37,175 nt of DNA from Clostridiaceae bacterium (GTDB lineage: Bacteria; Bacillota; Clostridia; Oscillospirales; Butyricicoccaceae): positions 1 through 37,175 of the forward strand of contig QXXE01000040.1 in assembly GCA_009911355.1 (NCBI GenBank), in the 5' to 3' direction. A program made the translations under genes and the position numbers. The notes below the pieces were generated by a model. That model was not told the DNA's origin. It did not search any database and saw nothing but the letters and a program-made list of their open reading frames with translations. This document shows positions 1 to 34,160 of the stretch, in pieces. Every line of letters begins with the position of its first letter. Positions within the stretch are counted from its first letter, which is position 1.

Positions 1-170
1 AGCCCCTCTGGCGGGTCCAGCAGGCTGCTGGCGCCCCCCGCAGGGGGCGGAGCCTGCCCCCGCCCGCAGGCGGAAAAGGGGAGTCCAGAGGGGTTAGCCC
101 CTCTGGCGGGTCCAGCAGGCTGCTGGCGTCCCCCCGCGGGGGGACGGGCTCCCCAGGCCGCGGCATAAAA
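1..170. repeat. GC-rich palindromic intergenic repeat, two tandem sub-units ('agcccctctggcgggtccagcaggctgctggcg...'), truncated by the window edge
   Basis: The direct repeat at 1-50 recurs at 98-150. Internal near-palindrome 'ccagaggggttagcccctctgg'. Same family as the copies listed below. Confidence 0.7.
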
Positions 171-9704: not shown

Positions 9705-9930
9705 GTCCTCGCCGGACGGGCCGCCTGCGCGGCGGGCGGCAGGGCTCTGCCCTGCACCCGCTGGGGCTTCCGCCCCAGACCCCCGAGATGCTTGCGCATC
9801 TCCCCCTCGCCTGCGGGCGGGACGGGGGATGGGCTTACCCTTACCGCTCACCGGCCAGCCCGCCAGAACGGCGGCGGGCTGGCCGGTAAAGATGGACGAA
9901 CCCGGTTATTTGTGATTGCCAACAGGTGGG
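9705..9930. repeat. long-form GC-rich repeat element (no terminal terminator module)
   Basis: Shares 'gcgcggcgggcggcagggctctgccctgcacccgctggggctt', 'gagatgc..gcatctc', 'cgcctgcgggcgggacggg' and 'cagcccgccagaacggcggcgggctgg' with the copies at 23135 and 33645. Confidence 0.75.
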
Positions 9931-10624: not shown

Positions 10625-10703
10625 TACCGTCCGTCCAACCGCAAAAAATGTAGTTTCGGCGGCTGGTATCGTCACGCCTGCATGCAATATGGCGCAGACG
10701 CAC

Positions 10704-10760
10704 AAAAGCCGCTGGCATGGTAACGTCAGCGGCTTCTCGTTTATTCTTCGGTTTTTCCAC
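10704..10760 (+). terminator. intrinsic-terminator hairpin 'aaagccgctggcatggtaacgtcagcggctt' followed by a T-rich run
   Basis: Same 'cgcacaaaagccgctggcat...cagcggctt' module as the hairpins at 23396, 29612 (inverted) and 33895. Confidence 0.5.
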
Positions 10761-12469: not shown

Positions 12470-12600
12470 GCCGGGCTGCCGCGGCGGGCAGGACGGGGGC
12501 TTGCCCTCGCCGGGCGGGCGTCCTGCGCGGACAGCGCCAAAGGGGCTTGCCCTTTTGGAAACCCGTTCTCCGCTGCGGCGGGGGACAGGCGCGCCGCGAT
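12470..12600. repeat. short-form GC-rich repeat with palindrome 'ccaaaggggcttgcccttttgg'
   Basis: Family core followed by 'ctgcggcggggga'. Lies between gpr and spoIIP. Confidence 0.7.
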
Positions 12601-14479: not shown

Positions 14480-14625
14480 CTCTCCGTCCCGCCCGCAGGC
14501 GGAATGAAGTTTTTACTCGATTTTTTTACAAAAAAATCGCGGGAGTCCAGAGGGCGGGGCCCTTTGGCCGGGAGTCCAGAGGGCGGAGCCCTTTGGCACC
14601 GCCTGCGGAGGGCAACGCAAAAAAC
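14480..14625. repeat. repeat element (variant 'gagtccagagggcgg(g/a)gccctttggc' x2) plus the A/T palindrome 'cgatttttttacaaaaaaatcg' (14518-14539)
   Basis: Inserted in the rimP-nusA intergenic spacer of an otherwise compact operon. Confidence 0.7.
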
Positions 14626-15972: not shown

Positions 15973-16001
15973 CCTTTTTGGGAAGGGGGATAAGAGAAAC
16001 G

Positions 16002-16286: not shown

Positions 16287-16929
16287 CGGCATTTTAAGCC
16301 TTTTGGGGCTTGCAAAACGCGCGGGCAAGCTTGCGGCGGGCGACGACCCGGTGCGCGAGCTTGCGCAGGACGGGGTGATCCGCGCGGTGTTCCTCGCGAG
16401 CGACGCAGGCGCGGCCTCCTCGCGGCAGGCGGCGTTCACCGCCGGGAAGGAGGGCGTGCCGCTGCTGACGCTCCCTGTGACGAAAGCCGAGCTCGGCGGG
16501 GCGCTCGGGCGCAACGCGTGCGCGCTGTGTGCGCTCAGCGACAGCGGCTTCGCGGCGAAGGCGGCGGAAAAGCTGGCGGCGGCCGACCCCTCGTTCGCGG
16601 AAGCCGCCAAGGCGCTCGCGGAAAAGCACGCGCGGATCCAGTCCCGGCGCGGGATCAAGAAGCATCGCGCGCCGGACGCTGCCCAAGCGCAGCCCGCGCC
16701 CCGTGCGGCGGGCAGGCCGCGCGCAGCTGACAAACCGTCCCGCCCGCGCAGCGGCGCGGCGCCGCAGAAGCGCCGGGACGGCGGGAAATTCCAGAAAAGC
16801 CGGGTGCGCAGCGCAGCCGGGGTTTCCCGGAAGCCAGCGGACAACAGCCAGCTTTCAGCTGATAAACGCCCCGCCCCGCGTAAGCGGAGGGCTGCGGCAA
16901 TAGAGCAACCACGGAAATTACGGAGGTGA
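16276..16929 (+). CDS. L7Ae/YlxQ-family ribosomal-protein-like protein with a 115-aa Ala/Pro/Arg/Lys-rich C-terminal tail
   Basis: N-terminal 100 aa 'LSLLGLAKRAGKLAAG...VIRAVFLASDAG' is the L7Ae fold. The frame stays open to 16929, just before infB. Confidence 0.6.
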   Translation: MTDNGILSLLGLAKRAGKLAAGDDPVRELAQDGVIRAVFLASDAGAASSRQAAFTAGKEGVPLLTLPVTKAELGGALGRNACALCALSDSGFAAKAAEKLAAADPSFAEAAKALAEKHARIQSRRGIKKHRAPDAAQAQPAPRAAGRPRAADKPSRPRSGAAPQKRRDGGKFQKSRVRSAAGVSRKPADNSQLSADKRPAPRKRRAAAIEQPRKLRR

Positions 16930-16935
16930 GCGCCC

Positions 16936-19446
16936 ATGGCGATAGATAACAAATACAGGGTACACGAAGTTGCAAAGGACTTCAACCGGAGTACGAAAGA
17001 AATCACCGACATCCTGACCGAATACACCAAAGCACCCAAAAACCATATGCAGGTGCTCGACGACCTGGACCTGTCCATGATCTTCGAGGTCATGACCCAG
17101 AACCATCAGGTCGCCGACATTGAGTCGGTGCTGCACGAGCAGCAGGAGCAGCGGGAGAAGCAGCTTGCGGCGGCGCGCGAGAAAGCTGCGAAGCAGCAAG
17201 CGCAGCAGCCTGCGGCCAAGCCGAAGGAGAAGGAAGCCCCGCGCGGCGAGCGTTCCGGGCGCGGCGGCCGCCAGCAGCAGAAGCAGCAGCCCGCAAGGCA
17301 GCAGGCTGCGGCCAAGCAGCAGCCCGCAAAAGCGCAGCCGGGGAAGCCGCAGGCACAGCCCGCGAAGGCGCAGCCTGCGGCCAAACAGCAGCAGCCGCCA
17401 AGGCAGCAGCCTCAGCCGCAGCAGGCGGCCGGCGAAGCCCCGCGCCCGAGCAAGGTCAAGCAGGTACACCGCATTGACACGCGCGGCAGCGGCGATGTGA
17501 ACCTCGCGAAATACGACGAGCGCATCGACTCCCTGGTGCCCGAGAAAGCCAATAAGATGGGCGCGGGCAAGCAGAAGCTGACCAAGCGCAGCGAGCAGCG
17601 CGGCAAGCAGCAGGTATCGAGCAAGCGCCGTGCCGAGGAGCAGGAAAAGATGCGCCGTTTGCAGCGCCAGCAGCAGATGGCGGCGGCGAAAAAGGTGCAG
17701 CTGAAGGTGCTCATCCCCGAGGAGATCAACGTCGGCGAGCTCGCCCAGCGCTTAAAGCGCACGGCGGCGGACGTGATCAAGGAGCTGATGAAGCTGGGCG
17801 TGATGGCTTCCATTTCGGAGAGCGTGGACTTTGACACCGCGGCGCTGGTTGCGGAGGAGATGGGCGCGAAGGTCGAGAAGGAAGTGCATGTGACCATTGA
17901 GGAGCGGCTGTTTGACGAATCGGAGGACCAGGAAGCCGACCTCGTCCCGCGCGACCCGGTTGTCGTGGTCATGGGCCACGTCGACCACGGCAAGACCTCG
18001 CTGCTGGACGCGATCCGCAAGACGAAGGTCACCGAGGGCGAGGCGGGCGGCATCACCCAGCACATCGGCGCGTACCGTGTGCAGGTGGGCGACAAGCCGA
18101 TCACCTTCCTTGACACCCCGGGCCATGCGGCGTTTACTTCCATGCGTGCGCGCGGCGCGCAGGTCACGGATATTGCGATCCTGGTCGTAGCCGCGGACGA
18201 CGGCATCATGCCGCAGACGATCGAAGCGATCAATCATGCGAAAGCGGCGGATGTGCCGATCATCGTGGCGGTCAATAAGATCGACAAGGAGGGCGCAAAC
18301 CCCGACCGGATCCTCCAGCAGCTGACCGAGTACGAGCTGGTGCCCGAGGAATGGGGCGGCGACACCATCGTCTGCCAGATTTCGGCGAAGTTTGGCAAGG
18401 GCATTGAAAACCTGCTGGAAATGGTGCTGCTGACCGCGGAGGTGCAGGAGCTGCGCGCCAACCCCAACCGTCAGGCGAAGGGCACGGTCATCGAGGCGAA
18501 GCTCGACAAGGGGCGCGGCCCGGTGGCGACGGTGCTGATCCAGAACGGCACGCTGCGCGCGGGCGACGTTATCATTGCGGGCACGGCGGTTGGCCGTGTG
18601 CGTGCGATGACCAACGACGACGGGCGGAAGATCCAGTCGGCGGGGCCGTCTGTGCCGGTGGAGATCATCGGCCTTGCGGAGGTGCCCGGCGCGGGCGATA
18701 TCTTCTATGCGGTCGATGACGAGCGCATGGCGCGCACGCTGGTTGAGCAGCGCAAGGACAAGGAGAAGGAAGAGCGCAACAAGCGTTTCCACAAGGTCAC
18801 GCTCGACAACCTGTTCGACTCCATCCAGGAGGGGCAGATCAAGGAGCTTGGCATTATTGTGAAGGCTGACGTACAGGGCTCGGTGGAAGCGGTTACTTCT
18901 TCTTTGGAGAAGCTGACCTGCGACGAGGTACGGGTACGGGTGATCCATGGTGCGGTTGGCGCGATCAGCGAGTCGGACGTAATGCTGGCGAGCGCGTCGC
19001 ATGCGATTATTGTTGGTTTCAATGTGCGTCCGGAGCGTGCGGCAGCGGAGTCGGCGCAGATCCAGGGCGTAGATATTCGGATGTACCGGATTATTTATGA
19101 CTGCATTGAAGAGATGGAGCAGGCGATGAAGGGCATGCTTGCGCCCAAGTACAAGGAGGTTGTGCTGGGGCATGCGGAGGTGCGCACGACCTTCCGGGTA
19201 TCGGGGGTTGGCACGATTGCGGGCTGCTATGTGCAGGACGGCAAGATCCAGCGTTCGGCGCAGCTGCGTGTGCTGCGTGACAACGTAGTCATCCACGAAG
19301 GGATGCTGGCGTCGCTCAAGCGTTTCAAGGACGATGTCAAGGAGGTCATGTCGGGCTATGAGTGTGGCTGCGGCGTTGAGAACTTCAACGACATCAAGGA
19401 CGGGGACGTATTCGAGGCGTTCGTCATGGAAGAAGTCAAACCGTAA
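16936..19446 (+). CDS. infB: translation initiation factor IF-2
   Basis: 836 aa. G-domain '[17 protein letters not shown]', 'DTPGH' and 'NKIDK'. Q/A/K-rich N-terminal linker. Confidence 0.95.
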
Positions 19447-19458
19447 CAGCGAGGAAAA

Positions 19459-19500
19459 ACAGGGCGGCGCCGATGCCCGCCCTGTTTCCCTTCCTTCTTT
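19459..19500 (+). terminator. infB terminator hairpin 'acagggcgg-9nt-ccgccctgt' followed by a T-rich tract
   Basis: 9-bp GC stem immediately 3' of the infB stop. Confidence 0.55.
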
Positions 19501-19615
19501 CCGCCGCCTCCGCCAGGGGCGCTGCCCCTGGACCCCGCGCCTGCGCGGCGGGCGCCAAAGGGACTTGTCCCTTTGGAATCCCTTTCTCCGCCTGCGGGCG
19601 GGACGGGGGCTGTGC
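19500..19615. repeat. short-form repeat ('gccaaagggacttgtccctttggaatccctttctccgcctgcgggcgggacggggg')
   Basis: Family core palindrome plus the 'cgcctgcgggcgggacggg' box. Confidence 0.7.
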
Positions 19616-19755
19616 CTGCGGATTGACAGATATGGTTGCCCAAACCCGCTCATGAATTGGTGTAAAAATGGCAAACTATACGCGAACATTTTATTGATTT
19701 ACCCAACCGCTTTTTGCGTAGATGAAGTAGTTATATTCGCAATCACTGCGCACGC

Positions 19756-19890
19756 ATTCCCCGCCGCAGCGGATCATGGGTTTCCAAAGGGACGAGTCCC
19801 TTTGGCGCCCGCCGCGTAGGCGCGGGGGTGCAGGGGGCAGAGCCACCTGCCGCCCTGTCCGCGGAGGACATCCCGCGATAGCGGGACGTG
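19756..19890. repeat. short-form repeat, inverted orientation ('ttccaaagggacgagtccctttggcgcccgccgcgtaggcgcggggg')
   Basis: Inverted copy of the family core. Confidence 0.7.
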
Positions 19891-19913
19891 ACGAATCTAT
19901 TAAAGGAGTTTTT

Positions 19914-20291
19914 ATGGCAAATAATCGAACCCAGCGCATTTCCGAAGAGGTTATGCGCGCTCTCGCCGAGTCCATCCGCTCGGTGAAGGACCCGCGCCTG
20001 CAAAACGGGCTCGTCTCCATCACCCGCTGCGAGGTAACCGGTGACCTGCGCTATGCAAAGGTTTATATTTCAGTGCTCGGCAGCGAGGCCGACGCAAAAG
20101 AGGTAATGAAAGGGCTGAAATCGGCTTCCGGCTGGCTGCGCCGCGAGGTTGGCAGCCGTGTCCAGCTGCGCTACGCGCCAGAACTCGTGTTTACCCTCGA
20201 CCATTCGATCACCCACGGCGCGCACATCTCCGAGGTGCTGGACCGGCTGGACCGCGAAGGCAGGCTCAGCGGGAGCAAGGAGGAAGAATGA
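19914..20291 (+). CDS. rbfA: ribosome-binding factor A
   Basis: 125 aa. 'RISEEVMRALAESI..DPRL..VSITRCEVTGDLRYAKVYIS' is the RbfA KH fold. aaaggag RBS. Confidence 0.85.
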   Translation: MANNRTQRISEEVMRALAESIRSVKDPRLQNGLVSITRCEVTGDLRYAKVYISVLGSEADAKEVMKGLKSASGWLRREVGSRVQLRYAPELVFTLDHSITHGAHISEVLDRLDREGRLSGSKEEE

Positions 20292-21256
20292 ACGTTACCG
20301 TACAGCAGGCTGCGGACGCGCTCCGCGAAGCCGGGGATTTTTTGATTTTGACTCACAAAAGGCCGGACGGCGATACGACCGGCTGCGCCGGGGCGCTGTG
20401 CCGGGGGCTGCGGGCGCTCGGCAAGACTGCGTTTGTGCTCCCAAACCCTGACCTGACCCCGCGCTACGGATGGCTGCTCGAGCCCCTCGCCGCGCCCGAG
20501 GGCTTTGTGCCGGGCTATGTCGTTTCAACCGACGTTGCGGATACGAATATGCTCCCGGCGGGCGCGGAAGGTTATGCGGGCAAGGTCGACCTCGTGATCG
20601 ACCATCACCGTTCCAACCCCGGCTTCGGCAGGCTGAACCTGGTCCGCCCGGAGGCGGGCGGCTGCTGCGAAGTCATTTATGATATTCTGGCGGCGCTTGG
20701 CGTTGCGCTTACGCCCGAGCTGGCCGAACCCCTTTATGTCGGCGTTTCGACCGATACCGGCTGCTTCAAATTCTCGAATACGACCGTCCACACCCATGAA
20801 GTGGCGGCGGCTTGCCTTGCAACCGGCCTGGACTGCGGCGAGCTCAACCGCAGGCTGTTCGAGGTCAAGCGCTGGCAGCGCTTCCAGATGGAGCGCATTA
20901 TGGTTGAGACGATGGAGTTTTATCACGACGGCTGCATTGCGGTTGCCCAGCTGCGCCGCGCCGACCTTGACCGCGTCGGCGCGACAACCGACGACCTCGA
21001 CTCGATCTCCGGCCTGCCCCGCCAGGTCGAGGGCGTACAGGCAGGGCTGACGCTGACCGAAAACAAGGACGGCTCGGTGCGCCTGTCGGTGCGCTCGACC
21101 AAGGAGGTCGACGCCTCGTCGGTCTGCCGGAAGCTGGGCGGCGGCGGCCACCTGCGCGCGGGCGGCGCCTCCTTCCCGGCGGGGGTTGGCATGGAGGAAG
21201 CCAAGCGCCGCGCGCTTGCCGCAACGGAGGAAGCTTATCGTGAAAGCGGCCTCTGA
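20288..21256 (+). CDS. nrnA: DHH-family phosphoesterase, NrnA-like (oligoribonuclease / pAp phosphatase)
   Basis: 'LILTHKRPDGDTTG', 'VIDHHRSN' and 'GGGGHLRAGGASF' (DHH plus DHHA1 motifs). Confidence 0.8.
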   Translation: MNVTVQQAADALREAGDFLILTHKRPDGDTTGCAGALCRGLRALGKTAFVLPNPDLTPRYGWLLEPLAAPEGFVPGYVVSTDVADTNMLPAGAEGYAGKVDLVIDHHRSNPGFGRLNLVRPEAGGCCEVIYDILAALGVALTPELAEPLYVGVSTDTGCFKFSNTTVHTHEVAAACLATGLDCGELNRRLFEVKRWQRFQMERIMVETMEFYHDGCIAVAQLRRADLDRVGATTDDLDSISGLPRQVEGVQAGLTLTENKDGSVRLSVRSTKEVDASSVCRKLGGGGHLRAGGASFPAGVGMEEAKRRALAATEEAYRESGL

Positions 21257-22160
21257 GTATCACGGCGTCCTGATTGTGGACAAGCCCGCCGGGTTTACCT
21301 CGCATGACGTGGTTGCCAAGCTGCGCGGCATGTTCAGGACGCGGCGCATTGGGCACGGGGGCACGCTCGACCCGATGGCGACCGGCGTGCTGCCGGTGTT
21401 TGTCGGCGGCGCGACCAAGGCGGCGGACTTTGCGGCGGCGCAGGATAAGTCCTACCTCGCGGGGTTTACGCTGGGCTGCGCGACGGATACGCAGGACACG
21501 ACTGGCACAGTGACCGAGGTGTCCGGCAGGTCTGCCGCCGCCCCGGCGGTCGAGTCGGCGCTGCGTGCGTTCGAGGGCAGGCAGATGCAGCTGCCGCCGA
21601 TGTACTCCGCGGTGCAGGTCGGCGGGCAGCGCCTGTATGAGCTCGCGCGAAAGGGCGTCGAGGTAGCGCGTCCCGAGCGGGAAATTTTTATTCAGCAGAT
21701 TCAGCTGGAATCGTTTGACGAGGGCACGCAGAAGGGCAGCTTTTCGGTTACATGCTCGAAAGGCACGTATGTGCGCACGCTCGTGCATGATCTGGGCGTG
21801 CGGCTGGGGACGCTTGCGGCGATGCACAGCTTGCAGCGTACCCGCGCGGGGCAGTACCCGCTTTCAGAAGCGTACACGCTCGAAGCCGTGCAGCGGGCGG
21901 CGGACGAGGGGCGGCTTGGGGCGCTCCTGCGGCCCACCGATTCGCTCTTTCTGGAATATCCGGCGGTCACGCTCGATGATTATGGTTGGAAACGGGCGCA
22001 GAACGGCGCGTTTATCGGTTTTTCGCATGCGGGCGGTTGCCCGCAGGAGCGCGGGGCGCTCTGCCGCGTCTATTATGACGGCGTGTTCCGCCTGCTCGGG
22101 CGGGTCGATGCGCTCGAGAAGGGCGGGCTGGCGCTGTTTGTACACAAAAACTTTTTCTGA
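21240..22160 (+). CDS. truB: tRNA pseudouridine(55) synthase
   Basis: GTG start after ggagg. 'GVLIVDKPAGFTSHDVV' and 'GHGGTLDPMATGVLPV' carry the catalytic Asp motif. Confidence 0.85.
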   Translation: MKAASEYHGVLIVDKPAGFTSHDVVAKLRGMFRTRRIGHGGTLDPMATGVLPVFVGGATKAADFAAAQDKSYLAGFTLGCATDTQDTTGTVTEVSGRSAAAPAVESALRAFEGRQMQLPPMYSAVQVGGQRLYELARKGVEVARPEREIFIQQIQLESFDEGTQKGSFSVTCSKGTYVRTLVHDLGVRLGTLAAMHSLQRTRAGQYPLSEAYTLEAVQRAADEGRLGALLRPTDSLFLEYPAVTLDDYGWKRAQNGAFIGFSHAGGCPQERGALCRVYYDGVFRLLGRVDALEKGGLALFVHKNFF

Positions 22161-22235
22161 CGGCGTAAAGCGTGCTGGAAGCAGTGTTTTTATGGCGATT
22201 TGGCTGCAATATTTTCCTTCTGGGAGGGTTCAGGC

Positions 22236-23132
22236 ATGATAGATAATACGCGCCCCCGCGCGATTGCGCTGGGTTATTTTGACGGCGTACACCGGGGGCA
22301 CTATGCGCTTATGGAGCGGGCGGTGCAGCGGGCGCGGGAGATCGGCGGCATTGCGTCGGTGTTCACCTTTGATGTGCATCCGAGCAGCTTCATGACTGGC
22401 CGGCCCGTGCCGCTGCTGACCGCCGCCGAATACCGCGCCGAGGAGATCAAGCTGCTGGGCGGGGTGGACGAAGTGATTTTCGGGCAGTTCGAGCGGCTTC
22501 GGACGGTGGACTGGCGTGATTTTATCCATGAGCTGCTGGTTGGCGAGTTCGGCGCGCGCTGGATCATTACAGGCTTTAACAACCGGTTCGGGTACAAGGG
22601 CCTGGGCACGCCGGAGGGGCTGGCGGAGGAATGCGCGAAGCTGGGGGTCGGCTGCGACTGCATTGGTGATGTGCGCATTGATGGCACGACGGTTTCTTCG
22701 ACGTATATCCGGGGGCTGATCGCGGAGGGCGACATGGAGCGCGCTGCAAGGTTCCTGGGGCATCCGTATACGATTACGGGGCATGTGGAGCATGGGCGTT
22801 CGGTCGGGCACAAGATGGGCATCCCGACGGTAAACCTGCCGCTCCCGCGGGAAATGGCGTTGCCGCCCTATGGGGTGTACGTGGCGCGGGTGCGTTTTGA
22901 TGGGAAAAGCTATCCGGCGGCGACCAACATCGGGGAAAAGCCGACGTTTTCCGATCCGGGCGCGCCGACGATCGAGCCGCATCTGCTTGATTTCGACGGC
23001 GATCTTTATGGCAAGCGCATCCATGTGGAGCTGCACAAATTCCTCCGGCCGGAGCGCGCGTTTGGGTCGGTTGAGGAGCTGAAGGCGGCGATCGCAAAAA
23101 ACGTGCAGCAGACCCGCGATTATTTCGCGTGA
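22236..23132 (+). CDS. ribF: bifunctional riboflavin kinase / FMN adenylyltransferase
   Basis: 'AIALGYFDGVHRGH' nucleotidyltransferase motif and the C-terminal riboflavin-kinase domain 'PTVNL'. Confidence 0.85.
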   Translation: MIDNTRPRAIALGYFDGVHRGHYALMERAVQRAREIGGIASVFTFDVHPSSFMTGRPVPLLTAAEYRAEEIKLLGGVDEVIFGQFERLRTVDWRDFIHELLVGEFGARWIITGFNNRFGYKGLGTPEGLAEECAKLGVGCDCIGDVRIDGTTVSSTYIRGLIAEGDMERAARFLGHPYTITGHVEHGRSVGHKMGIPTVNLPLPREMALPPYGVYVARVRFDGKSYPAATNIGEKPTFSDPGAPTIEPHLLDFDGDLYGKRIHVELHKFLRPERAFGSVEELKAAIAKNVQQTRDYFA

Positions 23133-23134: not shown

Positions 23135-23445
23135 GCTGGTTCGCCTCCGCAGCGGGCGGCGGGGCTCTGCCCCTGCACCCCGCGCCTGCGCGGCGGGCGG
23201 CAGGGCTCTGCCCTGCACCCGCTGGGGTTTCACCCCAGGCCCCGAGATGCTGCCGCATCTCTCCTCGCCTGCGGGCGGGACGGGGGCTTGGGTGTTCTTC
23301 CCATCCTTCATGCGCTATGACACAGCCCGCCAGAACGGCAGCGGGCTGGTCGGTGTAGGCGCTAATTGGTGGGCGCCCGCTTACTGCTCTCCCGCACAAA
23401 AAGCCGCTGGCATGATGACACCAGCGGCTTTTCTTTGCTTCTGTT
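23135..23445. repeat. long-form GC-rich repeat element, the most complete copy, ending in a terminator module
   Basis: Modules in order: 'gcgcggcgggcggcagggctctgccctgcaccc'; 'gagatgctgccgcatctc'; 'cgcctgcgggcgggacggg'; 'cagcccgccagaacggcagcgggctgg'; 'gtcggtgtagg..aattggtgg'; terminator hairpin. Confidence 0.8.
23396..23445. terminator. bidirectional terminator 'aaaagccgctggcatgatgacaccagcggctttt'
   Basis: 10-bp stem flanked by A- and T-tracts. Terminal module of the 23135 repeat. Confidence 0.65.
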
Positions 23446-23619
23446 CAGTTTTTTGGCTGCGGCTTTGCAGTTTATCTGCATCGTGGGGCTGCCTGTGCGG
23501 CGCTGGTGTTGTTAGCCGCAGATGGTTTTCTGCAAGGGGTTCTTTGTGGGTTTTGGGGGGGGGGGGACGGTTCGGTATGGCAGTGCCCGCGCCGTACAGA
23601 CGCGCCCTGCGCCCGGTTT

Positions 23620-24510: not shown

Positions 24511-24690
24511 GTCCGTCTGCGCGGGGGCGGCAGGGCGCCGCCCTGCACCCGGCCCTCCGCGGGCAGCGCCAAAGGGGCTGGCCCCTTTGGAATCCCTTCC
24601 ATCGCCTGCGGGCGGGACGAGGGGGCGGTGGATGCGCGGGGGGAGTCTGGCTGCTGCCAGTTCCGGCCTCCCCTTTACAGACAGGCTTTC
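24511..24690. repeat. short/medium-form repeat ('cgccaaaggggctggcccctttggaatcccttccatcgcctgcgggcgggacgagggggc')
   Basis: Family core. Lies between the divergent SDR and DUF4317-like genes. Confidence 0.7.
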
Positions 24691-24720
24691 GGGGTATATA
24701 CTGAAAAGGCCGAAAAAACG

Positions 24721-24797: not shown

Positions 24798-26321
24798 ATG
24801 ATGAGAATTACAAAGCGCGACGTGCAGGAGCTTCGCAAACGCCTGACCAAAAAAGGCTGCACCTTTGACCGGGTCACTGGCTTTTATATTAACAGCGGCA
24901 GGGAGGTTGTGCTGAGGTTCAGCGAATCCTTTGCGAATCTTCCGGAGGAGGAATTTTTTAAGTATCTGGAAATCGCGAAAAAGGTCTTTTCCGGCACGCC
25001 CGGTAAAAACCTGCTCGAGCTCAGCTTTTCGGATACCGACGAGGGGCGCGCACAGCAGGAATTCCTGCGCACGCTGCGCTCGGATAAGGACTGCACGGAC
25101 GAGCTCATCGATCATTTTTACGATCTGATTATGGAGCATTACCATGCCGAGGGCAGTTATCTTGCGCTGCTGTTCCATGATATTTATGACGTGCCTGTGC
25201 GTACCAAGGACCGCCAGAAGCTGGATGACTCGGAAGAGGTTTACGAGTATATTGTCTGCGCGCTGTGCCCGGTTGACCTGTCCAAGCCCGCGCTTGGCTA
25301 CCGCGAGGAGGAAAACCGCATCGGCGCGCGTGAGCGCGACTGGGTGGTCGGGATGCCCGAGGTCGGCTTTGTTTATCCTGCGTTCATTGACCGGGGCGCG
25401 GACGTGAACGCCGTCATGTATTACGCCAAGAGCGACTCCCACCCGGAGCTTATTGAGGGGCTGCTTGCCTGCGGCGCATGCCGCACCGCCGCTGAGGAAA
25501 AGCTGATGTTTGAAGACGTTATCAATGACGCGTTTGGGGATATGCAGGAGCAGGCGGAAAATACATACCTGTTCATCCAGCGCAACCTTGACGGGCTGGT
25601 TGCCATCCGCGAGGACACCGAGGAGGGCAGCGGCGATTTCGCGCTGACGGCAGAGGATGTTGCCGATGTGATCGCGGATATCGAAATGCCCGACCTTGTG
25701 CGCGAGTCCATTATAGAGGGCTGCGCCGAGATGTTCGGCGGGGATCTGCCGTCGGCGAGCCACCTTGTGGACGCGAAGCTGGCTGCGGAGGGCGAGCGCC
25801 GCGCACAGATCCTGACCCTGCAAAGGAAGATCACCGCGCTCGAGGAACAGCTGGACGAAGCGCGCGGGCTCACCACAGCAGACGCAGAGCCTGCGGAGCC
25901 CCTGGAAAACAGCGCCGAAGGCGCTGCCGTAGCGCCCAGGAAGAAGCTCGAACTGCGTTTGCCAGGCGCGCGGCGGGAATCTGTGCGCGCAGCAGTCATT
26001 GACGGGAAGCGCTGCCTGGTTATCCCGATGGAGGACGGCGAGACAGCCAGCGTGAACGGCGACACGCTGCCGCTTTGGGAGGACGGCGGGCAAGCCGATG
26101 ACGCGGCTATGGAGCCCGAAGCGGTTGCAGCGCCCGCAGAAACGGCTACGGAACCCGAAGCAGGTGCAGCGTCCGCGGAAACGGCTTTGGAGCCCGAAGC
26201 GGTTGCAGCGCCCGCGGAAACGGCTATGGAGCCCGAAGAAGTTGCAGCATCCGGGGAAACCGCTGCTGTAGAAGATGCAGCGGCGCTGACCGAAGCTGCT
26301 GACGTGCCGCAAGCCGATTAA
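24798..26321 (+). CDS. conserved Firmicutes hypothetical protein (DUF4317-like by recall) with C-terminal tandem peptide repeats
   Basis: 507 aa. N-terminal 'ITKRDVQELRKRLTKKGCTFDRVTGFYIN'. C-terminal 4 x 'EPEAVAAPAETAT'. Family name is from memory, not a search. Confidence 0.55.
   Translation: MMRITKRDVQELRKRLTKKGCTFDRVTGFYINSGREVVLRFSESFANLPEEEFFKYLEIAKKVFSGTPGKNLLELSFSDTDEGRAQQEFLRTLRSDKDCTDELIDHFYDLIMEHYHAEGSYLALLFHDIYDVPVRTKDRQKLDDSEEVYEYIVCALCPVDLSKPALGYREEENRIGARERDWVVGMPEVGFVYPAFIDRGADVNAVMYYAKSDSHPELIEGLLACGACRTAAEEKLMFEDVINDAFGDMQEQAENTYLFIQRNLDGLVAIREDTEEGSGDFALTAEDVADVIADIEMPDLVRESIIEGCAEMFGGDLPSASHLVDAKLAAEGERRAQILTLQRKITALEEQLDEARGLTTADAEPAEPLENSAEGAAVAPRKKLELRLPGARRESVRAAVIDGKRCLVIPMEDGETASVNGDTLPLWEDGGQADDAAMEPEAVAAPAETATEPEAGAASAETALEPEAVAAPAETAMEPEEVAASGETAAVEDAAALTEAADVPQAD
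26101..26260 (+). repeat. 4 x 39-bp in-frame tandem repeat ('gagcccgaagcggttgcagcgcccgcagaaacggctacg')
   Basis: Directly visible in the sequence. Encodes the 13-aa repeats at the C-terminus of the 24798 gene. Confidence 0.8.
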
Positions 26322-26329: not shown

Positions 26330-26510
26330 CCGAAAGACTGCGTCCCGCAGCGCCCGGTGAGGCGCTGCGGGGCGTGCACGCCTGCCGATGAATGCAGATG
26401 TGTTGAGAAAGCCGCCGGGATATCAAAAGCGGATTTCAGATAGGGTTAAAAGACTGCGCCCGGCAGTGCTCGGCGAGACGCTGCGGGCCGTGTATGCCTG
26501 TAAAGGAAGA
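26330..26510 (+). repeat. two copies about 113 bp apart of a 52-nt hairpin-forming motif 'aaagactgcg(t/c)cc.gcag.gc.cgg.gag.cgctgcggg.cgtg.a.gcctg'
   Basis: Copy 1 at 26337-26390 contains the perfect 10-bp stem 'ccgcagcgcc/ggcgctgcgg'. Copy 2 at 26448-26500 lies just 5' of the next gene's RBS. Confidence 0.5.
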
Positions 26511-26523
26511 AAAGGAGGCTGCT

Positions 26524-26877
26524 ATGCTGGTCGACAGCTACAAATATGAAGATGAAATCATTGTCTGCTTGAATGTTGAAGAGCCTGAAATGATGGAAAT
26601 TGGTGCGAAGATGGAGGAAATTAACCCAGAAGCCTATATGAATGGCTATAACTGGGACGCGTTTTTAACGCATTATTTTCGCCTGCACGCGCCCGATCTT
26701 CTGGAAGGGCTTGACCCTGACCCCGAGGCGGGGTCGTATGTCGGGCACTATGAAATGACCGCCGAAAACAGGAAAAAAGCTGAAAAATTTGTTGAAACCG
26801 TAACAAAGCTGCTTGAAAACGAGAATGAAATCTATCGGTTCCTTTGTGAAGAGGGCGATCGGATCGATTGGGACTGA
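26524..26877 (+). CDS. small acidic hypothetical protein (117 aa)
   Basis: Strong RBS aaaaggagg. Lower-GC codon usage. No family recognised with confidence. Confidence 0.5.
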   Translation: MLVDSYKYEDEIIVCLNVEEPEMMEIGAKMEEINPEAYMNGYNWDAFLTHYFRLHAPDLLEGLDPDPEAGSYVGHYEMTAENRKKAEKFVETVTKLLENENEIYRFLCEEGDRIDWD

Positions 26878-27032
26878 AGCCCCCTTGGGTGCGCGGAGGG
26901 GGCGCAGCGCCGGGCGACAACAGCCTGGGAGCAGATGCCGAAAGCGGGAAATGAAGCTGAAAAAGGGATACCGAGCGGTTCCTGCGATACCTGGAACCGG
27001 TTCAAGTAAGTGATTTGTGAGGAAGGATGCAA

Positions 27033-27674
27033 ATGGGACAGTACGTGGATGCAGGGAAAACCCAGCCTAAAAAGAGCATTTGGCTATTCGGCATGGTAAT
27101 TGCTGTTTTCCTGATCATTCAATTCGATGCAGCTGCTTCTGTCATATCAAACCAGATCTTATCTATGGGAAGTACGCTGGTTGTCTGGGGTGCAGGTGCA
27201 GCTGTTATCTGGATCAAGCTGAAAAAGAAAAACTTAGAAAGTGCGCTTTATAGCAGTGTTGCTTTTTCCCGTGCAGATGCGATGATTCTTTTCTTTGCCA
27301 TTGCGTGCGGCGCCGCAATGGCCCTCGGCAATTTTTTATATGCGGGGCTCAAGCCGCTGTTTGTCAGAGAGCTTTTGACGGGTTATCCATTGTATAATAT
27401 CCGAAATATCATTTATTACCCGCTGGAAGTATTGCTGATGTTGGAGCTTCTGATTTGTTCACAGAAAGCGGGGGAGGTTTTTATCAAAGAAGCCCTTCAG
27501 TGGGGAGCGTTTGCGCTGTTTTTGCTGTGGGGATTACCGCATATCTTGTGGCATGGGCTTGCGGATGGCATTGTATCTGCATGCAGGGCGTTTATCTACG
27601 CGGCCCCCTTTTATGCTTCGGGGAAAAAGGTTCAAACGAGCTATATCAGTATGCTGATATTATGGTTTCTGTGA
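27033..27674 (+). CDS. polytopic membrane protein, about 6 TM (weakly CPBP-like)
   Basis: gaggaagg RBS. Hydrophobic segments. 'WHGLAD' is a possible HxxxD. Confidence 0.45.
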   Translation: MGQYVDAGKTQPKKSIWLFGMVIAVFLIIQFDAAASVISNQILSMGSTLVVWGAGAAVIWIKLKKKNLESALYSSVAFSRADAMILFFAIACGAAMALGNFLYAGLKPLFVRELLTGYPLYNIRNIIYYPLEVLLMLELLICSQKAGEVFIKEALQWGAFALFLLWGLPHILWHGLADGIVSACRAFIYAAPFYASGKKVQTSYISMLILWFL

Positions 27675-27696
27675 AAACGCGGGTGGCCAGTGCGAA

Positions 27697-28161
27697 ATGA
27701 TAGAGAATAGGAACGTGACAATCATTGCGGTAGAGGACAGGACCGCGCGGCTGGAAGAACAATTATTGAAGGTGTGGGAAAGCCCGGTAAAGGCAACGCA
27801 CAGTTTTCTGTCAGAGGACGAAATGGCAGACATTAAAAAATACGTCCCGCGGGCTTTAAAAGAAATCCCCTGTTTGGTGATTGCGGAAGATGAAAATCAA
27901 ATTCCGGTTGGTTTTATGGGCATTGCGGGGCAGCATCTTGAGATGCTCTTTATCGCTGCGGAGGAGCGGGGGAAAGGAATCGGCAAAGAACTGCTTGCAT
28001 ACGGGATAGACAGATATTCGGTACGTGACTTAGCGGTTAATGAACAAAACCCCCTTGCAAAAGGCTTTTATGCGCACATGGGATTCCGTGCTTATCGGAG
28101 GACGGAGCGCGACGAGCAGGGAAATCCATATCCGCTTTTATATATGCGGCTGGGTGGATAG
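27697..28161 (+). CDS. GNAT-family N-acetyltransferase
   Basis: 154 aa. 'LFIAAEERGKGIGKELL' is the acetyl-CoA-binding R/Q-x-x-G-x-G/A motif. Confidence 0.7.
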   Translation: MIENRNVTIIAVEDRTARLEEQLLKVWESPVKATHSFLSEDEMADIKKYVPRALKEIPCLVIAEDENQIPVGFMGIAGQHLEMLFIAAEERGKGIGKELLAYGIDRYSVRDLAVNEQNPLAKGFYAHMGFRAYRRTERDEQGNPYPLLYMRLGG

Positions 28162-28231
28162 CTTTTCGCATGCCACGATTGCTTCTGGCGAAGCAGTTTG
28201 ATGAATTATTTTGGCCGGAAAGGACGGTTTT

Positions 28232-28654
28232 ATGCAGTATCAGGACAAATCCGGGATGTTTGCTGATTTTAATTTCAAGCTTGTCGTGATCAACAGCATA
28301 CTAGACAAGCAGCCCAGCTTTGAAGCGTCCCTGGCGGAAAGGAAAAAGCGGTATGTGGAACCCTATGAATGGTACAAAAACGACGAAATAATCCCGGAAA
28401 TGGCGGAATTTTTCGCGGAACTGACGCTGACAGAGGAAGACTTGGCGCAGTGTACCCATCTGGTGTTCGACGGCGGCAGCGATATTTACTTCCTGCTCAA
28501 GCCGGACTGGGACGGGGAGCTGGAGATTTTCGACGTGAGGAGCCTTGCGGGGGTGGAGCGGCTGCGGAATTTGCGGTCGGTAGATTGGACTTCCATGTGT
28601 GAGCCCGCGCTGCTTGCGCCGCTCCGTGACAGCGGCATTGAGGTCAAGGACTGA
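28232..28654 (+). CDS. small acidic hypothetical protein (140 aa)
   Basis: ATG after 'ggaaaggacgg'. No family recognised. Confidence 0.45.
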   Translation: MQYQDKSGMFADFNFKLVVINSILDKQPSFEASLAERKKRYVEPYEWYKNDEIIPEMAEFFAELTLTEEDLAQCTHLVFDGGSDIYFLLKPDWDGELEIFDVRSLAGVERLRNLRSVDWTSMCEPALLAPLRDSGIEVKD

Positions 28655-28751
28655 CAGGCTGTCCACGGCCTGGCCTGACGACGCCCTGTAAGGGAGCGTT
28701 TGCGCTGCCAGGCGAAGCGGGAACCGGCTGACGGGCAAAACGGACGATTAT

Positions 28752-28765
28752 TCGTTTCCGGAAAC
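28752..28765. promoter_or_regulatory. perfect 14-bp palindrome 'cgtttccggaaacg'
   Basis: Lies 105 nt upstream of the zinc-ribbon gene, next to 'ttgcgt-17-taggat'. Confidence 0.3.
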
Positions 28766-28869
28766 GGATTGCAATTTGTGGACTGGTGCAATTGACTTGA
28801 CCGGATTTCGGAATTGCTTGCGTTTTGCATGGATTTGTGATAGGATATGGCTAAAGGGAGGAATTGCAC

Positions 28870-29472
28870 ATGGCAAAAGAAAAAAAGGCAAAAAAAGGCA
28901 AAAAATCACCCAAACTGTGCCCGGAGTGCGGCAGTGAACTGCCGAAGCGTGCGAAAACATGCCCGAGCTGCGGCGCAGAATTAAAAAAGAAAGGCAAGCT
29001 TCGGATTCTGCTGCTGATCGTGGCCGTAGTGGTTGTGTTGGCGGCGGCGGCAGCGGCATTCCTGCTGTTCCGCGGGAGGGCGAACCAGCCGAAGGAGCCT
29101 TCGCTGACTGAGATCAGCACGCAAGCGCCGGCGGCAATTTTTGAAAACCCGGAGGACAGTACGAACCTGGTTGGGCAAAACCTGTACATAGACGGCGAGG
29201 CGGGGACGATTTTACGTCTGTCCGGGCAGGATTGCTGCGAGATTACGACGGAGGACGGTTCATTTGCACTGCTTTCCCGTACTTATACGCCGGTGGAAGA
29301 GTGGGAAAAGCTGGCGGAGAGCGTAAAGCTTCGTGCGTATTTCCGGTATCTGGGGCCGTCTGAGATTTTTGAGATGCCCTCGGGGGCGCTCCTGCTGATA
29401 GAGGTTGCAGAGGAAGAGGAGGAATCTGAGGAAGAGTCTGACGAAGGCTCAGAGGAGGAATCGGACGGTTAA
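28870..29472 (+). CDS. zinc-ribbon (2 x CxxC) single-pass membrane protein with an acidic C-terminal tail
   Basis: 'CPECGSEL....CPSCGAEL', then a poly-Val/Ala TM helix, then 'EEEEESEEESDEGSEEESDG'. agggagg RBS. Confidence 0.6.
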   Translation: MAKEKKAKKGKKSPKLCPECGSELPKRAKTCPSCGAELKKKGKLRILLLIVAVVVVLAAAAAAFLLFRGRANQPKEPSLTEISTQAPAAIFENPEDSTNLVGQNLYIDGEAGTILRLSGQDCCEITTEDGSFALLSRTYTPVEEWEKLAESVKLRAYFRYLGPSEIFEMPSGALLLIEVAEEEEESEEESDEGSEEESDG

Positions 29473-29611
29473 GCCGTAAAGACGACCTGTGATCTGGGAT
29501 TGCAGTCTCCGCGCCGCAGCGGCGGGAACCGGTTGCAAAGGCATGTTGCCGTCGCTGAAAGGGTTTTCGTAAGGGAAGCGGAAGCAGAGCGAAACTGAAA
29601 GTAAGCAAAGA

Positions 29612-29675
29612 AAAGCCGCTGGCGTTATCATGCCAGCGGCTTTTTGTGCGTTTGAGCAGTAATTGGGGGGGGCGA
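29612..29675 (-). repeat. terminal (terminator) module of the repeat element, inverted orientation; left half of a split copy
   Basis: 'aaaagccgctggcgttatcatgccagcggctttttgtgcg..gcagtaattgggggggg' is the reverse complement of the 23396-23445 and 33895-33932 modules. Also serves as terminator of the 28870 gene. Confidence 0.7.
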
Positions 29676-30639: not shown

Positions 30640-30905
30640 ACGCAGCCCGCCGCCGTTCTGGCGGGTTGCGTCACAGGGCACGAAGGAGGGGCAACACCCT
30701 AAAACCCCTGTCCCGCCCGCAGGCGACGGAAGGGATTCCAAAGGGGCTAGCCCCTTTGGTGCCGCCCGCGTAGGGCCGGGTGCAGGGCAGAGCCCTGCCG
30801 TCCCGCCCGCAGGCGACGGAAGGGATTCCAAAGGGGCTAGCCCCTTTGGCGCTGCCCGCGCAGGGCCGGGTGCAGGGCAGAGCCCTGCCGTGTGCGCGCC
30901 GCGCA
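30640..30905 (-). repeat. remainder of the split repeat element, inverted, containing a tandem duplication of a 105-bp unit
   Basis: 'cagcccgccgccgttctggcgggttg' is the reverse complement of 'cagcccgccagaacggcggcgggctgg'. Then 2 x 'ccgcaggcgacggaagggattccaaaggggctagcccctttgg.gc.gcccgcg.agggccgggtgcagggcagagccctgccg'. Confidence 0.75.
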
Positions 30906-30919
30906 GCCGACGGAACCCC

Positions 30920-33644: not shown

Positions 33645-33935
33645 CCCCTCTCGCCTGTGCGGCGGGCACCAGAGGGCTCTGCCCTCTGGACTCCCAGCAG
33701 GGCGCTGCCCTGCACCCGCTGGGGCTTACGCCCCAGACCCCGAGATGCTGTCGCATCTCTATGTCGCCTGCGGGCGGGACGGGGACTTCTGCCCGCCCTT
33801 CACGCTCCGTGACCCAGCCCGCCAGAACGGCGGCGGGCTGGTCGGTGTAGGTTATTTGATTGGTGGTTTCCCACTTAACGCTCAAAACGCACAAAAAGTC
33901 GCTGGCATTATGACACCAGCGACTTTTTTTAGCTT
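33645..33935. repeat. long-form GC-rich repeat element, complete, with terminator module at 33895-33932
   Basis: Collinear with 23135-23445, including 'gagatgctgtcgcatctc', 'cagcccgccagaacggcggcgggctgg' and 'gtcggtgtagg..attggtgg'. Confidence 0.8.
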
Positions 33936-34040
33936 CTCTTAGTTTTTTATTTCTCCTGCCCGGCAAAATAACCTTACGTTTTCACCCATCTGCACATTTT
34001 TTATGGGTGAAGAGTACGCGTTTTCGGTAATAGCGCACCT

Positions 34041-34160
34041 ATCCCCGCCGCAGCGGATAAAGGGATTCCAAAGGGGCTAGCCCCTTTGGCGCTCGCCGCG
34101 TAGGCGCGGGGTGCAGGGGCAGAGCCCCGCCGCTCGCCGCGTAGGCGCAGGGGCGGAGCA
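34041..34160. repeat. short-form repeat ('attccaaaggggctagcccctttggcgctcgccgcgtaggcgcgggg' with 'cgccgcgtaggcgc' duplicated)
   Basis: Family core palindrome. Confidence 0.7.

Follow-up and report, generated by a model that had tools for sequence, protein, structure and literature searches.

Mosaic, hairpin-rich intergenic repeats in a gut Clostridia genome compared with REP, BIME and BoxC elements

Minisatellite-like intergenic repeats, such as the mycobacterial interspersed repetitive unit/variable-number tandem repeat (MIRU/VNTR) loci of mycobacteria, and the intrastrand-triplex element of Escherichia coli called BoxC, PIT or TMECO, of which Hoyne et al. in 2000 (Hoyne and Maher) reportedly gave an earlier description, are among the systems closest to the repeats considered here. 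These repeats form a family of GC-rich hairpin arrays in a 37,175-nt stretch of DNA from a Clostridiaceae bacterium of the Butyricicoccaceae (contig QXXE01000040.1 of assembly GCA_009911355.1; hereafter, the window), and the copy at 23135-23445 is the focal element. BoxC/PIT/TMECO is a 37-nt G/C-rich intrastrand triplex motif that forms a triplex in vitro, is always intergenic, shows neither orientation bias nor a link to mobile elements nor promoter or terminator activity, and is enriched at loci rearranged between strains, with local genome variability (Holder et al. 2015, PMC4666352). Under the ITxF definition, such a motif has consecutive purine (R), pyrimidine (Y) and Hoogsteen or reverse-Hoogsteen (H, rH) blocks, a stem no shorter than 6 triplets, and loops of 1-6 nt (PMC4666352). 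The superfamilies of repetitive extragenic palindromes (REPs) are defined by an unpaired GTAG or CGTC tag (variants TGTC and CCTC) beside a 20-40 bp palindrome and by a REP-associated tyrosine transposase (RAYT; a Y1 HUH transposase) gene flanked by the repeats, and none is recorded in Firmicutes (Di Nocera et al., PMC3733652). REP doublets forming hairpins (REPINs) and their RAYTs have been treated as one system (Bertels & Rainey 2011, PMC3116915).

The window carries what is probably a lineage-specific family of mosaic, noncoding, hairpin-rich intergenic repeats that work like REPs, bacterial interspersed mosaic elements (BIMEs) and BoxC. We file it as an intergenic palindromic/triplex mosaic repeat, outside REP, BIME, BoxC and the miniature inverted-repeat transposable elements (MITEs). 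Proteobacteria and Cyanobacteria are almost the only groups in which repeats of the REP/BIME/BoxC style have been studied; such repeats are also established in high-GC gut Clostridia, and here they extend even into the rimP-nusA-infB-rbfA operon. Like REPs and BIMEs, the copies combine palindromic units and fixed linker motifs into mosaics, are extragenic and mostly downstream of genes, and form tandem clusters of variable unit number with stable hairpins that are tolerated inside operons. Unlike them, they have no GTAG/CGTC tag, keep one head-to-tail orientation where BIMEs alternate Y and Z units, and reside in a Firmicute, where the 2013 survey of tagged REPs lists none (PMC3733652). The likeness to REPIN-RAYT systems lies in the infB-rbfA spacer, with its two inverted units 177 nt apart, and in vertical persistence within one lineage; however, most copies are not inverted doublets, and one unit (B, below) crosses phyla, in contrast to the strictly vertical inheritance of REPINs.

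With BoxC/TMECO the family shares short (~25-37 nt) G/C-rich units in which one strand combines purine and pyrimidine blocks with a third, mirror-related one, the three being consecutive. Both are intergenic, follow no strict orientation rule, lack a transposon link, differ sharply in copy number between close relatives and sit at hotspots of rearrangement or intergenic change. However, TMECO is class II/IV (Y-R-rH), its blocks measure 9 nt, and its consensus is CCCTCNCCC N3-6 GGGNGAGGG N3 GGGNGAGGG; in the window, neither strand has a match to the Y-loop-R part of that consensus (CCCTCNCCC N3-6 GGGNGAGGG), which any full TMECO must include. The units described here have the layout of class III/I (R-Y-H), with 5-7 potential triplets and 2-5 nt loops, stand head-to-tail interleaved with non-triplex hairpins, and are predicted triplexes, whereas the TMECO triplex has been demonstrated physically. 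As in MIRU/VNTR loci, strains of one species differ by whole numbers of units (29, 41 or 90 nt) at fixed intergenic loci, operons included; here, however, the units are perfect hairpins with covarying stems, dispersed as mosaics and not just as tandem arrays.

Modular hairpin arrays and selection on their stems

The original prediction had proposed a dispersed, modular family of GC-rich palindromes, and direct- and inverted-repeat searches recovered it at all the loci listed. The palindrome CCAAAGGGRCNNGYCCCTTTGG (at most 2 mismatches) occurs 7 times in the window, against 0.00 expected from dinucleotide shuffles; the corresponding values are 9 against 0.11 for the box CGCCTGCGGGCGGGAC and 6 sites (9 strand-hits) against 0.01 for the motif GCAGGGCNNNGCCCTGCACCC. 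A module map made with tolerant matching resolves the copies into about nine short modules, which keep a single collinear order and orientation in all of them. Read in the sense of the focal copy, [A2 C]n is followed by (A2 B) or (W D) and then by A1, and the long forms add E and later T. This one order bears out the modular arrangement that had been proposed and therefore speaks against a merely generic similarity among the copies. The palindromic units (17-28 nt) occur 3-9 times each in the 37 kb, exclusively in spacers, and two small kinds of hairpin alternate. The A-type is NNCC-TGCG(C)-GGNN. In the G-type (modules B, C, W and G), the 5' arm is rich in purines and has a GGG core, the loop measures 2-5 nt, and the pyrimidine 3' arm leads into a C-rich tail, as in 5'-GTGAGGGCGCTGCCCTCACACTCCCG and 5'-CCAAAGGGACTTGTCCCTTTGGAATCCCT.

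Compensatory substitutions keep the stems paired, and the hairpins are under selection. Fifteen short-form cores were aligned, 8 from the window and 7 from two other metagenome-assembled genomes (MAGs), hence at least 3 genomes. The local hairpins A2, B and A1 are paired in 97% of the cells, compared with 87% in column shuffles, and in 7 of their 18 pairs both partners have changed. Covariation scores 0.30, compared with 0.11 when shuffled, and the observed values were reached by 0 of 500 shuffles; sliding the stem partners lowers pairing to 39-55%. The A2 stem occurs as CGCC/GGCG, GCCC/GGGC, GTCC/GGAC, CCCC/GGGG and GTCT/AGAC, and the B stem shows all four A-T/G-C combinations at two positions. 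Furthermore, whole elements fold much better than shuffles (z = -2.4 to -4.5).

The copies in the window are as follows; short forms measure ~95-130 nt, and long forms add D, E and usually T. Contigs L195-L204, cited for comparison, are mouse-gut MAG contigs of conspecific strains with exact copies of the window's short-chain dehydrogenase/reductase (SDR) protein.

1..170, minus strand: short form truncated by the window edge, 64 bits; B' CCAGAGGGG-CTAA-CCCCTCTGG + ACTCCCC at 79-106, partial B' at 1-13, A1 at 57-72
9714..9890, plus strand: long form starting ~21 nt past the stop of the last mrp gene, with the DJ-1 gene and then T downstream; A2 9722-9738, C 9739-9759, W 9761-9783, D 9785-9802, A1 9808-9823, E 9856-9881
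10698..10758, plus strand: T module, AAAAGCCGCTGG-loop-CCAGCGGCTT and a T-rich tail, 3' of the DJ-1 gene
12470..12600, plus strand: short form directly past the gpr stop, 75.6 bits; A2-like hairpin GTCCTGCGCGGAC, B 12537-12564, A1' 12570-12583
14480..14625, minus strand: short form between rimP and nusA, antisense to the operon; B' unit of 29 nt present twice (three times in L199), an AT-rich hairpin, A1 14486-14501
19500..19615, plus strand: short form 67 nt past the infB stop, 104 bits; G-type hairpin 19513-19537, A2 19538-19554, B 19555-19582, A1 19589-19604
19747..19890, minus strand: short form, inverted, upstream of rbfA, 81.8 bits
23135..23445, plus strand: focal long form starting 10 nt past the ribF stop, no B palindrome, fold z = -4.5; 41-nt A2'+C' unit 23142-23182, A2 23183-23199, C 23200-23220, W 23222-23238, D 23244-23261, A1 23266-23281, E 23323-23348, T 23399-23432
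24519..24628, plus strand: short form between the divergent SDR and DUF4317 genes, 94 bits; C 24530-24550, an A2-like hairpin, B 24569-24596, A1 24603-24618
29592..29675, minus strand: T module of the long form downstream of ackA, with a low-GC cassette between T and the E hairpin
30640..30909, minus strand: long form starting 11 nt past the ackA stop, with an A2-like hairpin; 90-nt [C, A2, B, A1] units 30710-30799 and 30800-30889 (one in L195), E 30643-30668
33645..33935, plus strand: long form starting ~11 nt past the stop of the nucleotidyltransferase gene; A2 33652-33668, B' 33669-33695 (CCAGAGGGC-TCT-GCCCTCTGG + ACTCCC), C 33697-33717, W, D 33742-33759, A1 33765-33780, E 33815-33840, T 33894-33927
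34031..34160, minus strand: short form starting ~20 nt past the stop of the minus-strand gene 34169-34879, 97.5 bits; A2 34131-34147, C', A2 34090-34106, B 34062-34089, A1' 34043-34056

Compared with this map, several details of the original prediction need correction. A core palindrome had been ascribed to all copies, but neither CCAAAGGG nor CCAGAGGG occurs in the focal element or at 9705-9930. The common box is present in most copies as A1, with the variant CCGCTGCGGCGGGG in its place at 12570, 19759 and 34043. The hairpin read as 10 bp with a 5-nt loop is CCAGCCCGCC-AGAACGGC-GGCGGGCTGG, with an 8-nt loop, and the E stem, called perfect, is imperfect in the focal copy (ACAGCCCGCC...GGCAGCGGGCTGG). 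Family modules do lie at every predicted locus, but 29612-29675 is the terminator module alone and the T copy at 10704-10737 had been missed. The locus 24511-24690 contains the short form 24519-24628, the remainder up to 24690 being unique sequence. Copies in both orientations, including those in the rimP-nusA and infB-rbfA spacers, are as described. The claim that almost every intergenic space is occupied was too broad, as in our gene map 11 of the 21 spacers of at least 70 nt hold a module (9 hairpin arrays, 2 with T only).

The same data bear on the idea that the copies are classical MITEs, that is, deletion derivatives of DDE-type insertion sequences with terminal inverted repeats and target duplications, mobilised in trans. 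Their size range (95-310 nt) fits this idea, both orientations occur, one conspecific contig (L203) has a DDE transposase, and the minimum-energy fold pairs the A2 side with the A1 side around B. However, this long-range A2:A1 stem is not supported by covariation, because A1 is constant while A2 varies and its positions covary with each other; it is the local hairpins that covariation backs. The copy ends have no inverted repeats, no direct duplication is visible beside any copy, the copies are mosaics of different module sets, polymorphism consists entirely of internal gain or loss of tandem units, and no transposase recurs near the units. The tests run thus already contradict the MITE label used in the original prediction, and we give it next to no probability. 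Separately, a G-quadruplex or i-motif reading of the GGG/CCC runs was discarded, since it fails to account for the covariation at A/T positions.

The module T is a separate, repeated intrinsic terminator with four copies (10704, 23399, 29611 in reverse complement, and 33894). A terminator scan called the copy at 10706-10735; the copy at 23399-23432 has 12 pairs plus TTTTCTTT and a DNA-fold z of -4.45, and that at 33894 shows a compensatory C>T/G>A stem change. That the elements bring a terminator of their own, as had been proposed, holds only loosely, as a whole gene lies between T and the array in 2 of the 4 cases: the DJ-1 gene (9977-10624) and a low-GC cassette with a 234-aa open reading frame (ORF; 29765-30469). 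The promoter suggested as possible finds no counterpart among the repeated modules; the promoter-like sites at 9916-9945 and 24674-24702 are unique edge sequence. Searches of Rfam gave nothing at the gathering threshold and noise alone at E<=5, and a tRNA/tmRNA scan found none.

Gene-end placement and turnover between strains

The arrays are intergenic and lie preferentially at the 3' ends of genes. With a covariance model run with filters off, every match with E<0.1 in the window is intergenic. Seven of the 11 window arrays, those at the end of mrp and downstream of gpr, infB, ribF, ackA, the nucleotidyltransferase gene and gene 34169-34879, start 2-67 nt past a same-sense stop codon, six of them within 31 nt. 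Conspecific contig L196 has two further strong copies, 10 and 31 nt past stop codons and in the sense direction, in DNA non-homologous to the window; the family is therefore genome-wide and not confined to the window. Over the window and L196 together, 9 of 13 arrays follow immediately upon a stop codon and have the orientation of that gene. One remaining window array (24519-24628) stands between divergent genes, and two of the three long divergent promoter spacers, rpsT/gpr (11140-11461) and ackA/nucleotidyltransferase (32128-32433), are free of arrays. No spacer of the low-GC island at 26.3-29.5 kb holds a hairpin array. The orientation of B units relative to nearby terminators is sense in 4 and antisense in 2, too few cases to carry weight.

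Such placement raises the possibility that the elements are cis-acting RNA structures selected in transcripts, as exonuclease barriers in 3' untranslated regions, processing sites or partial terminators/attenuators that tune how strongly the genes of an operon are expressed relative to one another, with T the true terminator. The compensatory base changes and the sense bias of the arrays past stop codons agree with this explanation, as do the quality of T as an intrinsic terminator, with its stem change at 33894, and the class III pyrimidine-motif layout on the sense strand, the sole triplex type reported in RNA (PMC4666352). However, the rimP-nusA copy and the copy upstream of rbfA are antisense, the same spacers lack elements in close relatives, unit number varies between strains of one species, Rfam has no match, and the hairpins have no U-tracts; the E. 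coli PIT/BoxC element, moreover, has no promoter or terminator activity (PMC4666352). Copies in antisense, variation among strains and the lack of elements in relatives make a dedicated regulatory role less likely, and we consider it quite improbable.

Tandem-unit turnover is evident among conspecific strains, whose element loci differ solely by whole tandem units and homopolymer lengths. The 41-nt A2'+C' unit past ribF is present in 1, 2 or 3 copies, the 90-nt [C A2 B A1] unit past ackA in 1 or 2, and the 29-nt B' unit in rimP-nusA in 2 or 3. Additionally, alignment places a synteny break in L196 exactly at the 5' edge of the focal array. In that contig, as in L200 and L201 to judge from gene order, synteny is lost on the flank of the array opposite SDR: the array, E and T remain beside the SDR gene, and an ABC-transporter region takes the place of ribF. 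The arrays mark sites of rearrangement and variable gene cassettes.

The family is specific to one lineage. The rimP-nusA, infB-rbfA and ribF-downstream spacers contain no modules in L206 (NusA 93%), L208 or Intestinibacillus massiliensis (L209/L210), whose rimP-nusA spacer is a compact 70 nt. A search of 1.0 Mb surrounding infB, taken from 80 related gut metagenome contigs, gave no copy. Among the matches listed, only MGBC135451 (nine loci) and MGBC165025 have the complete A2-B-A1 short form (at least 64 bits). Presence in housekeeping spacers of one lineage, together with absence from sister lineages and from recently acquired low-GC DNA, points to recent spread and not to an ancient regulatory RNA.

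How such spread could occur is addressed by a REP/REPIN-type explanation, in which a single-copy HUH tyrosine transposase (a RAYT or an IS200/IS605-like TnpA) copies a folded hairpin from single-stranded DNA and the mosaic arrays are the debris of repeated insertion beside existing units. The original prediction called the elements REP-like, and their behaviour is so: as multi-copy palindromic mosaics they occupy extragenic sites, for the most part behind genes and in convergent or co-directional settings, as reported for REPs (PMC3733652). The inverted pair in the infB-rbfA spacer (19533-19591 and 19769-19827; 59 nt, 90% complementary, 177 nt apart) looks like a REPIN. A 28-nt unit that is identical across phyla and remains GC-rich even in a Nitrospirota genome of 37% GC would suggest active, transferable copying. 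However, no unpaired GTAG/CGTC tag accompanies the hairpins, whose flanks are CCYG (5') and AATCCC (3'); CGTC precedes A1 in just 2 of 9 copies; the units are mostly head-to-tail and not inverted dimers; and tagged REPs are absent from Firmicutes in the survey (PMC3733652).

The enzyme was also sought. No RAYT gene was found in the window. A phmmer search of the 0.83 Mb around 123 listed B units, with IS200 and IS608 TnpA queries, gave one spurious match to an antisense ORF and no Y1 transposase, which is a weak argument, RAYTs being single-copy. Pfam found no transposase family among the 148 ORFs flanking B units; it returned SAM synthetase, ribosomal protein S2, aldolase, Mur ligase and others, with no family above 3 members. 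All-versus-all clustering of 3591 ORFs from 114 listed loci yielded as recurrent families only ABC ATPases, UvrB and GalE. Literature searches with sequence strings returned unrelated primers only, and those for REP-like elements in Oscillospiraceae/Faecalibacterium nothing relevant. Taken with its positive side, the REP/REPIN-type explanation is unlikely.

Under the BIME/REP- and BoxC-like interpretation that we favour, the elements would be tolerated, selfish or near-neutral DNA. New sites would probably be seeded by a trans-acting enzyme via single-stranded hairpin intermediates, arrays would expand and shrink by replication slippage or unequal recombination, and dispersed copies would serve as recombination substrates. 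The stem-loops are expected to be physically very stable and could form triplexes. In transcripts, sense arrays may act as stable 3'-end barriers ahead of the T terminator; in DNA, arrays may stall replication and promote recombination.

A 28-nt unit across phyla and its mirror-image tail

What is new here is the presence of a near letter-for-letter identical unit in many Clostridia and in distant phyla. A scan for CCAAAGGGRCNNGYCCCTTTGG in one genome per species (596 Gb) found at least 114 stretches, whereas chance would give a handful for ~20 specified bases. The conserved unit is CCAAAGGGRC..GYCCCTTTGG AATCCC (28 nt). Its 3' flank, which was not part of the search pattern, stands on exactly one side in 108 of the 123 listed instances (88 AATCCC, 17 AAACCC, 3 AATTCC). 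The 5' flank is CCYG or GCG, and another GGG/CCC hairpin usually precedes.

Among the matches listed, MAGs of Oscillospiraceae or Clostridia form the majority, and many of them contribute more than one contig. Further occurrences of the unit are in Lentisphaerota (7 loci in two MAGs), Acidobacteriota, Thermodesulfobacteriota, Aminicenantes (a closed chromosome), Chloroflexaceae, Chlamydiales, Synergistota, Desulfocurvus, a Methylobacterium isolate and Candidatus Magnetomicrobium (Nitrospirota; 37% GC; contigs of 337 and 83 kb). Six Acidobacteria matches are something else, a conserved site without the flank. The gene context in Methylobacterium and Magnetomicrobium fits these hosts, so the contigs are not mis-binned Clostridia. 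In Magnetomicrobium the unit belongs to a ~85-nt, three-hairpin GC-rich block with at least 2 occurrences in AT-rich DNA, which would be hard to explain without horizontal acquisition and copying. Plasmid and phage collections gave no match to the focal element and IMG/VR gave one contig with a B unit; thus, the family is not primarily phage- or plasmid-borne.

Every lineage sets the B unit in a longer composite repeat of its own. An Oscillospiraceae group (L004, L039, L107, L108) has a common ~170-nt segment (…GATTTTTTATGTGAATTGCGCC…CTCTGCGGAGAGCGAC…) upstream of B. In Candidatus Magnetomicrobium (L018, L068) a common AT-rich segment with the palindrome TGCAAACCATTT…AAATGGTTTGCA lies downstream of B.

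The hairpins that precede B follow a second rule, and their tails, like their stems, are under selection. The C-rich linker after the stem is the mirror image of the 3' arm and thereby the same-direction complement of the purine-rich 5' arm. Pairs of 3' arm and linker are GCCCTCAC / ACTCCCG, GCCCTCG / CGCTCCCG, GCCTCAC / ACTCCG, GTCCTCGAG / CTCCTG, GTCTCGCG / CTCTG, GTCCCCA / ATCCCCTG and ACCCCGAC / ACCCCA. Two tests were made on units from the matches listed, with orientation set independently by B. In the first, 22 of 69 distinct units contained an exact 5-mer mirror probe, compared with 5.8 +/- 2.1 for permuted stem/linker pairings (maximum 14 in 2000). A direct-repeat reading of the C-rich tail, whose probe was present in 4 of 68 units compared with the 22 of the mirror, was dropped.

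In the second, a register test of 61 distinct units, the 5' arm was counted from the loop and the linker from its 3' end, which leaves no freedom of alignment. The fractions matching at positions 1-6 were 0.84, 0.72, 0.85, 0.85, 0.75 and 0.65, against 0.71, 0.58, 0.83, 0.69, 0.47 and 0.35 in permuted pairings, with P<0.002 at 5 of the 6 positions. The correspondence between arm and linker is A with T, G with C, and the closing T with A. Broader mirror tests, which mixed unrelated hairpins and both palindrome strands, gave a weak signal and are superseded by these anchored tests. Within the window the rule is obeyed by CCAGAGGGG...CCCCTCTGG / ACTCCCC, CCAGAGGGC...GCCCTCTGG / ACTCCC, CCAGGGGC...GCCCCTGG / ACCCCG, CTGGGGC...GCCCCAG / ACCCC and B with TCCCT. 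The CCAGAGGG variants have an ACTCCC tail, and the CCAAAGGG variants AATCCC.

The mirror relation, which Watson-Crick pairing does not explain, is the sequence rule of an intrastrand triplex. By its sequence, the R-Y-H layout is that of a predicted class III intrastrand triplex (T.A-T, C+.G-C), and the opposite strand that of class I (G.G-C, A.A-T), in the class definitions of Holder et al. 2015 (PMC4666352). The G-type units fit the triplex layout and register statistically, though with blocks of only 5-7. We can therefore entertain, tentatively and as a rather doubtful extension, that G-type units form a cross-phylum superfamily of self-contained intrastrand triple-helix elements, undescribed so far, in which the triplex and not the hairpin alone is selected. 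The hairpin's own 3' tail would then lie in its major groove, as class III in the C-rich strand or RNA and as class I in G-rich DNA. Units would be chained head-to-tail and would spread horizontally and within genomes through recognition of the folded structure and not of terminal repeats, with Clostridia, Lentisphaerota, Acidobacteriota, Nitrospirota and Alphaproteobacteria each having built composite intergenic repeats of their own. The triplex might serve as an RNA 3' cap proof against exonucleases or helicases or as a programmed site of replication pausing and recombination. If this were true, a cross-phylum 28-nt unit whose tail covaries with its stem would provide a natural test of whether triplexes form and matter in bacteria, a question open since the PIT/BoxC work.

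Several observations weigh against these interpretations. As regards the family, the three arrays at 1-170, in rimP-nusA and upstream of rbfA run antisense to the operon beside them, so a purely RNA-level role is unlikely for all copies. The transposase searches, which covered the surroundings of the units, found none. Neither an insertion junction nor an empty site was captured within the species, and we infer mobility solely from absence in relatives. As regards the mirror rule, the signal in the window alone is modest: runs of at least 5 contiguous mirror matches occur in 5 units, where 1.9 +/- 1.3 would be expected, and only one of these units reaches 6. The A-type, D, E and T modules disobey the rule, and the units entering the mirror statistics are phylogenetically non-independent. 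The predicted third strand is short (5-7 triplets), and C+.G-C triplets require protonation on the C-rich strand.

Gene context, cassettes and annotation

The window (62% GC) has the gene set of a spore-former-type Firmicute, and, of the named relatives, Intestinibacillus massiliensis (86%) and Agathobaculum (83%) stand closest in NusA. Its genes are arranged as follows.

206-9693: mrp antiporter operon
9977-10624: DJ-1 gene
about 10880-11140, minus strand: rpsT (ribosomal protein S20, 86 aa), with its own terminator at ~10826-10866
3' of rpsT in window order: gpr and spoIIP genes
13992-23132: rimP-nusA-ylxR-L7Ae-infB-rbfA-nrnA-truB-ribF operon
3' of ribF: SDR gene (minus strand) and divergent DUF4317 gene
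distal part of the window: ackA (minus strand), HIGH nucleotidyltransferase gene, band-7/NfeD genes

The repeats have practical consequences. They break MAG assemblies, whose contigs often end or have N-gaps within them. Gene callers extend or invent ORFs across arrays, a likely source of spurious "hypothetical proteins". The longest NusA ORF (14440-15972) starts within the rimP-nusA element and comes to 510 aa, where the gene calls of the strains give 439 aa. In L196 (10762-11373) a called ORF of 203 aa spans the focal array, and L208:3372-5009 was noted alongside these sites. On the other hand, the arrays are ready VNTR-like markers with which strains of this uncultured mouse-gut species can be typed. 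In a list of ORFs of 100 aa, rpsT is masked by a spurious plus-strand ORF (10717-11259).

Other differences between strains were noted. Homopolymer tracts beside T vary between L195-L204, from G7 to G12 past the focal element (23557-23570) and from C7 to C11 at the end of the cassette (29676-29683). The C-terminal part of the DUF4317 gene has five 39-nt (13-aa) tandem repeats (26095-26289; identity ~70-86%), and the length of the called protein depends on the strain (501-527 aa). The low-GC island (26400-30500; GC 0.46-0.52 against 0.62 for the window) encodes Imm51, GNAT, DUF6892, a zinc-ribbon protein and a GIY-YIG-like ORF, with content that varies between strains.

The interval between E and T is variable in gene content. 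In the window and in L198/L204, a ~950-nt cassette of ~33% GC lies between E and T (window span 29675-30640, minus strand); its 234-aa ORF (29765-30469) matches GIY-YIG only weakly, with an E of 0.0018 that falls short of the Pfam cutoff. L196/L197 have the same E-T cassette, with a frameshifting 8-nt deletion in the ORF. After ackA in L195 (3340-4900), E and T lie within ~55 nt and are followed by a different 374-aa gene on the other strand. The DJ-1 gene likewise stands between E and T (9890-10700). This interval looks like a gene-insertion hotspot, possibly through a homing-endonuclease-type gene.

Two further observations concern the infB region of other genomes. Several other gut Clostridia (L128, L160, L125 and L208) have an insert of 170-215 nt directly past the infB stop, and a repeat of the final 16-40 nt of infB, stop codon included, flanks this insert, with a third copy in L208; the duplicated ends are GGAGGAAGTTCCCCAGTAAC (twice in L160) and GCAGATTGAGGTGTAA (twice in L128). 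Such an arrangement suggests an element that may insert into the 3' end of a gene and supply a replacement end. In the relatives L115, L117, L118, L119, L120 and L121 (67-79% InfB identity), the infB-rbfA spacer is a different multi-hairpin sequence with a conserved framework, and it may represent either a structured RNA or a site at which hairpins turn over. Its hairpins keep fixed positions with wholly different stems that are still perfectly paired, as in CCAAATTGGTTCC/GAAACCAATTTGG versus CCGAAAAAGTTCC/GAAACTTTTTCGG and CCGTGCC..GGCACGG versus CCGCGCC..GGCGCGG.

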